From: Escherichia phage vB_EcoM_E9.1
Sequence record: PP886230
Strand: one strand, 5' to 3'
DNA: 64,000 bases
How positions within the stretch are numbered: position 1 is the first letter of the stretch; each line of letters starts with the position of its first letter. A program made the position numbers and the translations under genes. The notes beneath the pieces are model-generated. The model saw nothing but the letters and a program-made list of their open reading frames with translations, did no database searches and had not been told where the DNA came from. Positions 30,080 through 30,108 of the stretch are shown here, piece by piece.

Positions 30080-30108
30080 TGGGACATCACATAAAGATGT
30101 GATATAAT
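30080..30108 (+). promoter_or_regulatory. promoter, extended -10 with TGGGAC -35-like element
   Basis: TGGGAC-N17-TGTGATATAAT, 11 nt upstream of tRNA-Ser. Confidence 0.5.

Follow-up and report, generated by a model that had tools for sequence, protein, structure and literature searches.

The 64,000-nt stretch of Escherichia phage vB_EcoM_E9.1 DNA considered here (sequence record PP886230; hereafter the window) contains three promoters in which a G-rich hexamer takes the place of the -35 element, 17 bp upstream of a TG-extended -10. The window is PBECO4/121Q-type jumbo coliphage DNA, of the genus Asteriusvirus in the Rak2-like group, and is 99.6% identical to phage JP4 over 24 kb and 98.3% identical to PBECO4. 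It has a G+C content of 33%, six tRNA genes, and nearly every gene on the plus strand, and consists of small open reading frames (ORFs) with many TTGACA-type promoters; the equivalent region of phage CBB has been taken as early (PMC5259590).

The first of the three promoters (Table 1) has a predicted start at about 30115, 3-4 nt upstream of a tRNA-Ser(UGA) gene. Beyond this gene is a tRNA-like sequence with a borderline Rfam score, for which ARAGORN makes no tRNA call and which may represent a tRNA of degenerate or unusual type. The second promoter lies directly downstream of the terminator of an operon whose last gene encodes an RpoD-like sigma factor, and its predicted product is a structured non-coding RNA. 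The third precedes a virion structural protein gene, separated from it by a leader.

An initial annotation of this DNA had proposed that these promoters share the arrangement TGGGA(C/T)-N17-TATAAT, and all three do. Two of them start where it placed them (30080 and 46352), while the third starts at 57530, one base later than the 57529 given. The TG-extended -10 it described is likewise present at all three (TGATATAAT, at 30100-30108, 46372-46380, and 57550-57558), with the longer TGTG preceding it at the first two (TGTGATATAAT, at 30098-30108 and 46370-46380); the third has TATGA rather than TGTGA, and its upstream part is TATGATATAAT. Searching the window for TGGGAY-N15-19-TATAAT retrieves these three sites and no others, each on the plus strand with a 17-nt spacer. 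Shuffling the window gave an expectation of 0.23 matches, and none of 100 shuffles reached 3.

The third gene was also described as leader-bearing. The 72-nt leader is there, but it contains a predicted hairpin followed by TATAAATA, an exact T4-type late promoter motif that is conserved in the related phage EC.P1, and is best read as a late promoter, so that a middle-type and a late-type promoter stand in tandem upstream of this gene. A second exact TATAAATA is found at 58242-58249, upstream of the next virion structural protein gene (58266-59543). This motif is 4-5 times under-represented in a 352-kb relative, with 8 copies on the plus strand and 6 on the minus strand vs. about 35 expected on each.

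Architecture, abundance and gene set of the promoter class

Counts for a whole genome were made in EC22.5-2, a complete unannotated close relative (351,992 bp), to which the window aligns at 288,435-350,150, with 97-99% identity over most of its length and lower identity in the variable tRNA region. On the plus strand of EC22.5-2, GGGAC is found 17 bp upstream of TATAAT at 11 sites and 18 bp upstream at 2; over the spacings considered (10-25 bp) there is otherwise one site at 21 bp, and on the minus strand one at 15 bp. The pattern xG(A/G)GAC-N17/18-TAYAAT gives 20 sites, all on the plus strand, with unrelated spacers. Starting instead from the -10, the plus strand has 101 TGnTAYAAT words: TG(G/A)GAC lies upstream in 17, the biggest group, with the close variants TGGAAC, TGGGAA, and TTGGAC in 13 more, and TTGAC in 10. 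The TG extension is found in 17 of 20 strict class sites vs. 10 of 46 TTGAC promoters (Fisher p = 4e-6).

A position matrix derived from the TGGGA(C/T) motif and refined by iteration on EC22.5-2 finds 39 sites on the plus strand of that genome, none on the minus strand, and about 0.5 in Markov controls. Its consensus is tG(g/a)GACa...GTG(a/c)TATAATg, with an A-rich stretch upstream of the hexamer; over the 39 sites the hexamer carries 0.5-1.6 bits per position, and its T-G-(G/A) part is as conserved as GAC. A scan of the window with this matrix yields nine hits on the plus strand and none on the minus strand, among which the three promoters already described rank 1, 2, and 4. Positional conservation of GGGAC thus extends in a genome-wide motif search beyond those three cases, so that the refuting outcome named in the initial annotation did not arise, and the class is larger than the three promoters listed there: there are about nine sites in the window and about 39 in the whole genome. 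Its separation from the TTGACA promoters holds, with fixed hexamer spacing, linkage to TG, confinement to one strand, and a different distribution and gene set. We consider it highly probable that the class is real.

Could the likeness be fortuitous, or the trace of a promoter cassette that was recently duplicated, without any common regulation? The pattern was picked after being seen, and AT-rich genomes are rich in TATAAT (93 on the plus strand of the window). However, the excess over expectation in the window, the 39 to 0 division between strands against about 0.5 in controls, and conservation across genera (see below) all speak against this, and the spacers and flanks of class members are unrelated between sites, so they are not copies of one cassette. 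This explanation is effectively refuted.

As for the kind of promoter, the three sites have the -10 of canonical sigma-70 promoters (exact TATAAT at all three, at a spacing within 16-18 bp), but not the -35: TGGGAC matches TTGACA at 2 of 6 positions at 17 bp, and GGGACA at 4 of 6 at 16 bp, with the TT missing. Extended -10 promoters independent of a -35 have no conserved sequence there, while here the hexamer is conserved. There is no TGCTT, the core of the MotA box near -30, the conserved element being TG(G/A)GACA 17 bp from the -10; nor, as in T4-type late promoters, is the -10 itself TATAAATA. The host alternative sigma factors RpoH, RpoE, FliA, and RpoS, whose consensus sequences are known, were set aside given a -10 that is the sigma-70 optimum with TG. 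A shared downstream word following several class promoters, ATGACAAC(GG), was also rejected as too rare and unspecific, with 8 copies on the plus and 6 on the minus strand genome-wide.

Most class sites in EC22.5-2 are 10-120 nt upstream of ORFs with ribosome-binding sites. Among their targets are genes for a gp55-like late sigma factor (from a promoter at 217406), an RNase H/5'-3' exonuclease, gp32, primase, and the topoisomerase II large subunit, as well as a PD-(D/E)XK nuclease, a Clp-type protease, a NUDIX protein, and a cREC receiver-domain protein. The exceptions, with no ORF behind them, are the tRNA-Ser promoter and the promoters of all four paralogues of the structured RNA. The initial annotation had stressed non-coding outputs: these are indeed what the first two sites would drive, and all four RNA copies use the class, but since most members precede protein genes this does not define it. 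The members in the window, in the presumed early region, precede the tRNA, the RNA, and small genes (Table 1).

In EC22.5-2, members of the class range from 86 to 344 kb, plus one site at 30 kb. Two stretches, 25-50 kb and 300-350 kb, hold the clusters of TTGAC promoters and of a second family, AGTACTTGCA-N17-TATAATGTTTTACAT. The matrix scan found no class members in the minus strand coding blocks of this genome, which are taken as structural and late by analogy with phage PA5oct. The suggestion that these promoters mark a distinct temporal or regulatory class is therefore supported in its regulatory part; the temporal part we infer from the gene set, in which replication genes and a late sigma factor argue for a middle-type reading, as in T4-like phages. 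On these grounds the class is probably middle or delayed in timing.

Table 1. Positions of promoters, genes, and RNAs discussed in the text (window coordinates; promoter scores are in bits from the class matrix).
Feature	Position	Strand	Details
Class promoter 1	30080..30108	+	TGGGAC 30080-30085, 17-bp spacer, TATAAT 30103-30108; 30.0 bits, best in window
tRNA-Ser(UGA), promoter 1 product	30119-30208	+	ARAGORN; Rfam tRNA 60.1 bits
tRNA-like sequence, promoter 1 product	30213-30291	+	Rfam tRNA 29.3 bits, borderline vs. gathering score of 29
Class promoter 2	46352..46380	+	TGGGAT 46352-46357, TATAAT 46375-46380; 27.2 bits
Structured non-coding RNA, ~480 nt	46387..46865	+	Predicted product of promoter 2; conserved core from 46417
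Class promoter 3	57530..57558	+	TGGGAC 57530-57535, TATAAT 57553-57558; 28.2 bits
Leader behind promoter 3 (72 nt)	57565..57636	+	Predicted hairpin 57565-57585, then TATAAATA 57593-57600
Virion structural protein gene behind promoter 3, 127 aa	57637..58020	+	PHROG 16530, E = 3.6e-56; PBECO4 annotation agrees
Host-type promoter	43757..43785	+	TTGACA-N17-TATAAT (TATAAT 43780); heads operon 43820-46317
Phage RpoD-like sigma factor gene, 321 aa	45352..46317	+	Pfam Sigma70 regions 2, 3, 4; PHROG 351; PBECO4 annotation
Intrinsic terminator of sigma-factor operon	46325..46350	+	GGGTTGGC-TTAT-GCCAACC + seven T; compensatory changes in EC.P1
Class member	25073..25101	+	TTGGAC-N17-TGATATAAT, upstream of ORF 25185-25394; 28.1 bits, rank 3 in window
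Class member	24090..24118	+	GTGGAC-N17-TGATATAAT, upstream of ORF 24221-24511; 25.7 bits
Probable class member	1202..1230	+	TGAAAT-N17-TGATATAAT, upstream of ORF 1276-1620; 21.9 bits
Probable class member	13449..13477	+	TGGAAA-N17-TGCTATAAT, upstream of ORF 13595-14017; 21.8 bits
Probable class member	18862..18890	+	TGGAAG-N17-TGCTATAAT, upstream of DNA methyltransferase gene 18928-19788; 19.1 bits
Weak candidate	31713..31741	+	AAGGAC then TGATATAAT, ~190 nt upstream of tRNA-Ser(GCT) at 31930; 16.1 bits

Some details of the remaining window members and their surroundings may be added. The product of the gene at 18928-19788 matches the DNA methyltransferases of PHROG 116 (E = 1e-60). About 35 nt after the promoter at 25073 there is a hairpin, CCTCA-atga-TGAGG, with a T run (25102-25156), upstream of the ORF at 25185; a short RNA or an attenuator may be encoded here. 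A third and very uniform promoter family, aaaAGTACTTGCA-N17-TATAATGTTTTACATcgagaggg, has 19 copies within 19 kb of EC22.5-2 (31.4-50.1 kb) and one in the window (29742-29770, TATAAT at 29765), with conservation extending into the transcribed region. Several TTGAC-type promoters have spacers that end in (C)AGTACTG right at the TATAAT (at 30677, 31157, 48722, 53036, and 63365); AGTACT recurs at many other places in the window, and may be a separate regulatory word. Upstream of tRNA-Gly (29017) is a duplicated stretch, ttcatctatgagcttgc..ttagagacaaaaa, at about 28695-28735 and 28955-29005, each copy beside a TATAAT. Finally, the gene at 60642-61316 has an orthologue in PBECO4 that carries the annotation T7 gp0.7-like protein kinase ("inhibitor of host transcription"), likely another host-takeover function in this region.

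Genus-specific hexamers in related jumbo phages

Three promoter motifs have been predicted in CBB: TTGACA with an UP-like element, a "divergent RpoD-like" motif consisting of TGAAACG and a classic -10, and ATAAATA upstream of structural genes; the last two have also been reported for GAP32 (PMC5259590). The divergent motif, "Promoter 1," is a MEME prediction from regions upstream of ORFs only, and its 18 listed sequences (Table S6 of that study), TGAAAC(G/A)-N17-TGnTATAAT, precede DNA-synthesis genes and a gp55-like gene (PMC5259590).

The sites described here have the same properties: 17-bp spacing and TGn at all three, class promoters at orthologous loci of both lineages, and, in EC22.5-2, DNA-synthesis and gp55-like genes among the targets. 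Their hexamers, TGGGAC and TGGGAT, differ from TGAAAC at positions 3-4, and their orthologues toggle to TGGAAC, which is also in the CBB list. As judged from these sequence features, the three sites are the Asteriusvirus form of a Rak2-like jumbo-phage promoter class already predicted in sister genera. We found neither a description of the class for Asteriusvirus nor an Asteriusvirus transcriptome in the literature, and no promoter analysis in papers on RaK2, Sharanji, UE-S1, and fEgEco12. New in the present analysis are the number of sites (about 39 per genome), the link to a tRNA cluster and a four-copy RNA, the middle/late-type tandem upstream of a virion gene, a hexamer that varies by genus, and, tentatively, a connection between this hexamer and the C-terminal helix of a phage sigma factor.

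In the second Asteriusvirus subclade (EC.P1, fEgEco12; gp32 86% identical), orthologues of the three sites have the hexamers TGGAAC, TGGGAC, and TGGAAC, in order, with a conserved -10. That of the first was read in fEgEco12 and that of the third in EC.P1, both with the -10 unchanged; that of the second, also in EC.P1, has TGATACAAT as its -10. Hexamer and -10 are conserved at all of these, while at the second site the spacer diverges. The gp32 region of this subclade contains TGGGAC, TGAGAC, CGAGAC, TGGAAC, and TGGGAA. For both Asteriusvirus subclades the hexamer can be summarised as TG(G/A)(G/A)AC.

More distant relatives have their own versions. In SE_PL, TTGGGAC is found at 18 bp, 7 times in 29 kb, and Munch has TTGGGAC-N18. 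A RaK2-like Klebsiella phage has cTGAAC(A), and CBB, Serratia phage BF, and Xanthomonas phage XbC2 have TGAAAC. The pair of tandem class promoters upstream of gp32 in EC22.5-2 is found in EC.P1 and SE_PL as well. Across all genera compared, the extended -10 is invariant. As a negative control, the motif was not seen in 80 environmental IMG/VR loci from a gp32 alignment, which are distant (41-48% identity). Phage 121Q was the only match when IMG/VR was queried with the sigma factor or the 127-aa virion protein by itself, so these searches were unusable for footprinting. In PA5oct (118,629-149,462), TTGACA-N17-TATAAT stands upstream of gp32, and TTGACA with TGCTATAAT upstream of primase, instead of the class; only TTGAC/TATAATA promoters are described in the PA5oct paper.

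The structured RNA behind the second promoter follows the same pattern. Each genome has four diverged paralogues of it, all behind class promoters (in EC22.5-2 they are at about 90.0, 143.4, 223.2, and 333.2 kb), and there are homologues in EC.P1, EJP2, Munch, CBB, BF, and XbC2. Of 74 base pairs predicted for its fold, 39 are supported by compensatory double changes among 10 homologues from six phages. An Rfam 15 search of positions 46300-47100 of the window gave no credible family at E <= 10. Kinship to the abundant ncRNA001/002 of PA5oct was considered, but an nhmmer profile of the 10 homologues had no match in that 14.8-kb region. Upstream of the homologue there is TGAAAC-N17-TGnTATAAT in CBB, BF, and XbC2, and TGGGAC-N18 in Munch; in these four and in EJP2 it is always behind the hexamer version of its genus. 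The CBB example, whose class promoter is at about 336.27-336.31 kb, was overlooked in the CBB study because only regions upstream of ORFs were searched.

Candidate readers of the hexamer

To our knowledge, region 4 of sigma-70 is essentially the same across the hosts of these phages. With the host sigma-70 constant and the hexamer changing together genome-wide by genus, the comparison implies a reader that would be encoded by the phage. Three possibilities can be considered: the RpoD-like sigma factor, a separate activator working with host sigma-70, and, with no dedicated factor at all, host sigma-70 itself.

The RpoD-like protein (Table 1) matches primary sigma factors in the Protein Data Bank (PDB) with E = 7e-17, or 1e-29 with a profile. 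It has diverged much faster than gp32: the two proteins have 59% vs. 86% identity between Asteriusvirus subclades, 44% vs. 70% to RaK2, and 35% vs. 69% to CBB. Its identity to the sigma factors of other genera is 35-44% (38% for SE_PL). All the phage sigma factors compared share F127, T129, Y130, and A131, which in our own mapping correspond to sigma-70 F427, T429, Y430, and A431, residues that we take to line the pocket for -11A. In a by-eye alignment, the presumed recognition helix has R-(S/T)-S-(I/L)-H-R in the GGGAC clades (the window, EC.P1, and, despite its low overall identity, SE_PL), K-A-T-L-S-R in the GAAAC clades (CBB and BF), and R-G-T-L-H-Y in RaK2. PA5oct, which lacks the class promoters at the loci compared, has no match to the window sigma factor at E <= 1e-10.

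These features suggest the following scheme. Host RNA polymerase core would be directed to class sites by a phage factor that reads the hexamer at -35, for which the RpoD-like sigma factor is the likeliest candidate; it would be expressed early, from the perfect host-type promoter heading its operon. Activation of the class would bring on transcription of the tRNA-Ser cluster, the four structured RNAs, and the genes for replication and for the gp55-like late sigma factor. Control would thus pass, as a cascade, from host sigma-70 to the phage RpoD-like sigma factor, and from this to the gp55-like protein with TATAAATA late promoters. That the RpoD-like protein reads the hexamer seems to us about evenly balanced between true and false. 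The fuller version, in which its helix co-changes with the genus hexamer (R-x-S-x-H-R with GGGAC, K-A-T-L-S-R with GAAAC) and a three-sigma cascade operates across the jumbo-phage clade, we would put slightly below that.

Several points weigh against this scheme. We infer the start sites of the class, its timing, and the identity of its reader. The -10 is a perfect extended sigma-70 consensus, identical in all genera, yet at the positions through which sigma-70 reads -12 and the TG the phage sigma factor has other residues (S/S for W433/W434, M for Q437, Y for T440, Y for H455, and V for E458, in E. coli numbering from our own mapping of the alignment), and these positions vary between genera. 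An invariant, sigma-70-optimal -10 together with altered sigma residues fits better with host sigma-70 reading the -10. The register of the recognition helix was set by eye, the HMMER and Pfam alignments ending before it; about two evolutionary events underlie the match of helix to hexamer, which tracks phylogeny; and the PA5oct negative is one lineage.

The second possibility is that host sigma-70 reads the extended -10 while a separate phage activator or sigma-remodelling factor reads the hexamer, in a way functionally like MotA/AsiA in T4, with some other target for the RpoD-like protein. TG(A/C)TATAAT is the sigma-70 optimum and is unchanged between genera, while regions 2.4 and 3.0 of the phage sigma factor are unlike sigma-70 and variable between genera; a genus-specific hexamer needs just some phage-encoded reader, and a helix-turn-helix (HTH) regulator is encoded just upstream of the CBB sigma-factor gene. 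However, the hexamer is at the position read by sigma region 4, 17 bp from the -10 rather than at the -30 of a MotA box, and is unlike TGCTT. No AsiA homologue was found in EC22.5-2 by tblastn (best E 0.86), MotA not having been searched for. The T4 AsiA query, validated at 100% identity, matched 1169 records; of 30 of these, sampled evenly, none was larger than about 200 kb, and thus none was a phage of Rak2-like size. Nor is there a significant Pfam DNA-binding domain in four genes of the sigma operon or three just upstream of it. We regard a separate activator, the main rival, as rather unlikely, though less so than the remaining alternative.

This third possibility is that the class consists of ordinary host sigma-70 extended -10 promoters with a weak -35 (GACA at 16 bp), used throughout infection and requiring no dedicated factor. 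Extended -10 promoters can function without a -35, GGGACA at 16-bp spacing reproduces four of the six TTGACA positions, and PA5oct runs orthologous genes from plain TTGACA promoters. Against this, T-G-(G/A), which would not be read by sigma-70, is as conserved as GAC, and is kept where orthologous spacers drift; TGAAAC of the sister genera matches TTGACA at just 2 of 6 positions and is equally conserved; and host sigma-70 leaves a coordinated genome-wide change of hexamer unexplained. It appears quite improbable.

Significance and comparison with known systems

Rak2-like jumbo phages are under characterisation for phage therapy, and the descriptions of PBECO4-like phages consulted here do not cover the timing of their 500-600 genes. 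The class provides a regulatory map of putatively co-activated genes (the late sigma factor, tRNAs, and four structured RNAs), together with a testable reader. It also appears to drive a family of structured RNAs (~480 nt) with four copies per genome and no Rfam entry. The class offers a practical route to non-coding genes overlooked by ORF-based annotation. A hexamer varying by genus beside a constant -10 is a natural experiment on recognition of the -35 by sigma region 4. If the RpoD-like sigma factor does read the hexamer, these phages would supply a natural series of matched sigma-factor/-35 pairs, and class promoters could be used as orthogonal parts if the phage sigma factor alone suffices.

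The closest known system is Promoter 1 of CBB. Its 29-nt architecture is identical (hexamer, 17 bp, TGn and TATAAT), it serves the same gene set with a similar copy number (18 listed), and in both cases it coexists with TTGACA/UP-like promoters and ATAAATA late motifs. The difference is in the hexamer, TG(G/A)GAC in Asteriusvirus vs. TGAAAC(G/A) in CBB, and lies mainly in position 4.

The extended -10 (TGn) promoters of E. coli also have TG at -15/-14 before TATAAT, but their -35 is dispensable and unconserved, while here a non-canonical hexamer is strongly conserved at a fixed spacing. In T4 middle promoters, too, the -10 is of sigma-70 type, in many cases with the TG extension, and the -35 gives way to an upstream element specific to the phage; they likewise serve replication-type and tRNA genes, and some genes have tandem middle and late promoters. 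They differ in the sequence of the element and in its position, the MotA box being at -30 and the element here at -35 (17 bp from the -10), and in the proteins available: a full-length RpoD-like sigma factor is encoded here, and an AsiA homologue was not detected.

If the RpoD-like protein does read the class, the SPO1 cascade (host sigma-A to gp28 to gp33/34) would be a further parallel, with an early sigma factor acting on middle promoters that include that of a late sigma gene. The proteins are unrelated beyond the sigma-70 family, and the cascade here is a proposal from sequence. SPO1 middle promoters moreover depart from the host consensus at both -35 and -10, while in the jumbo-phage class the -10 is the host consensus.

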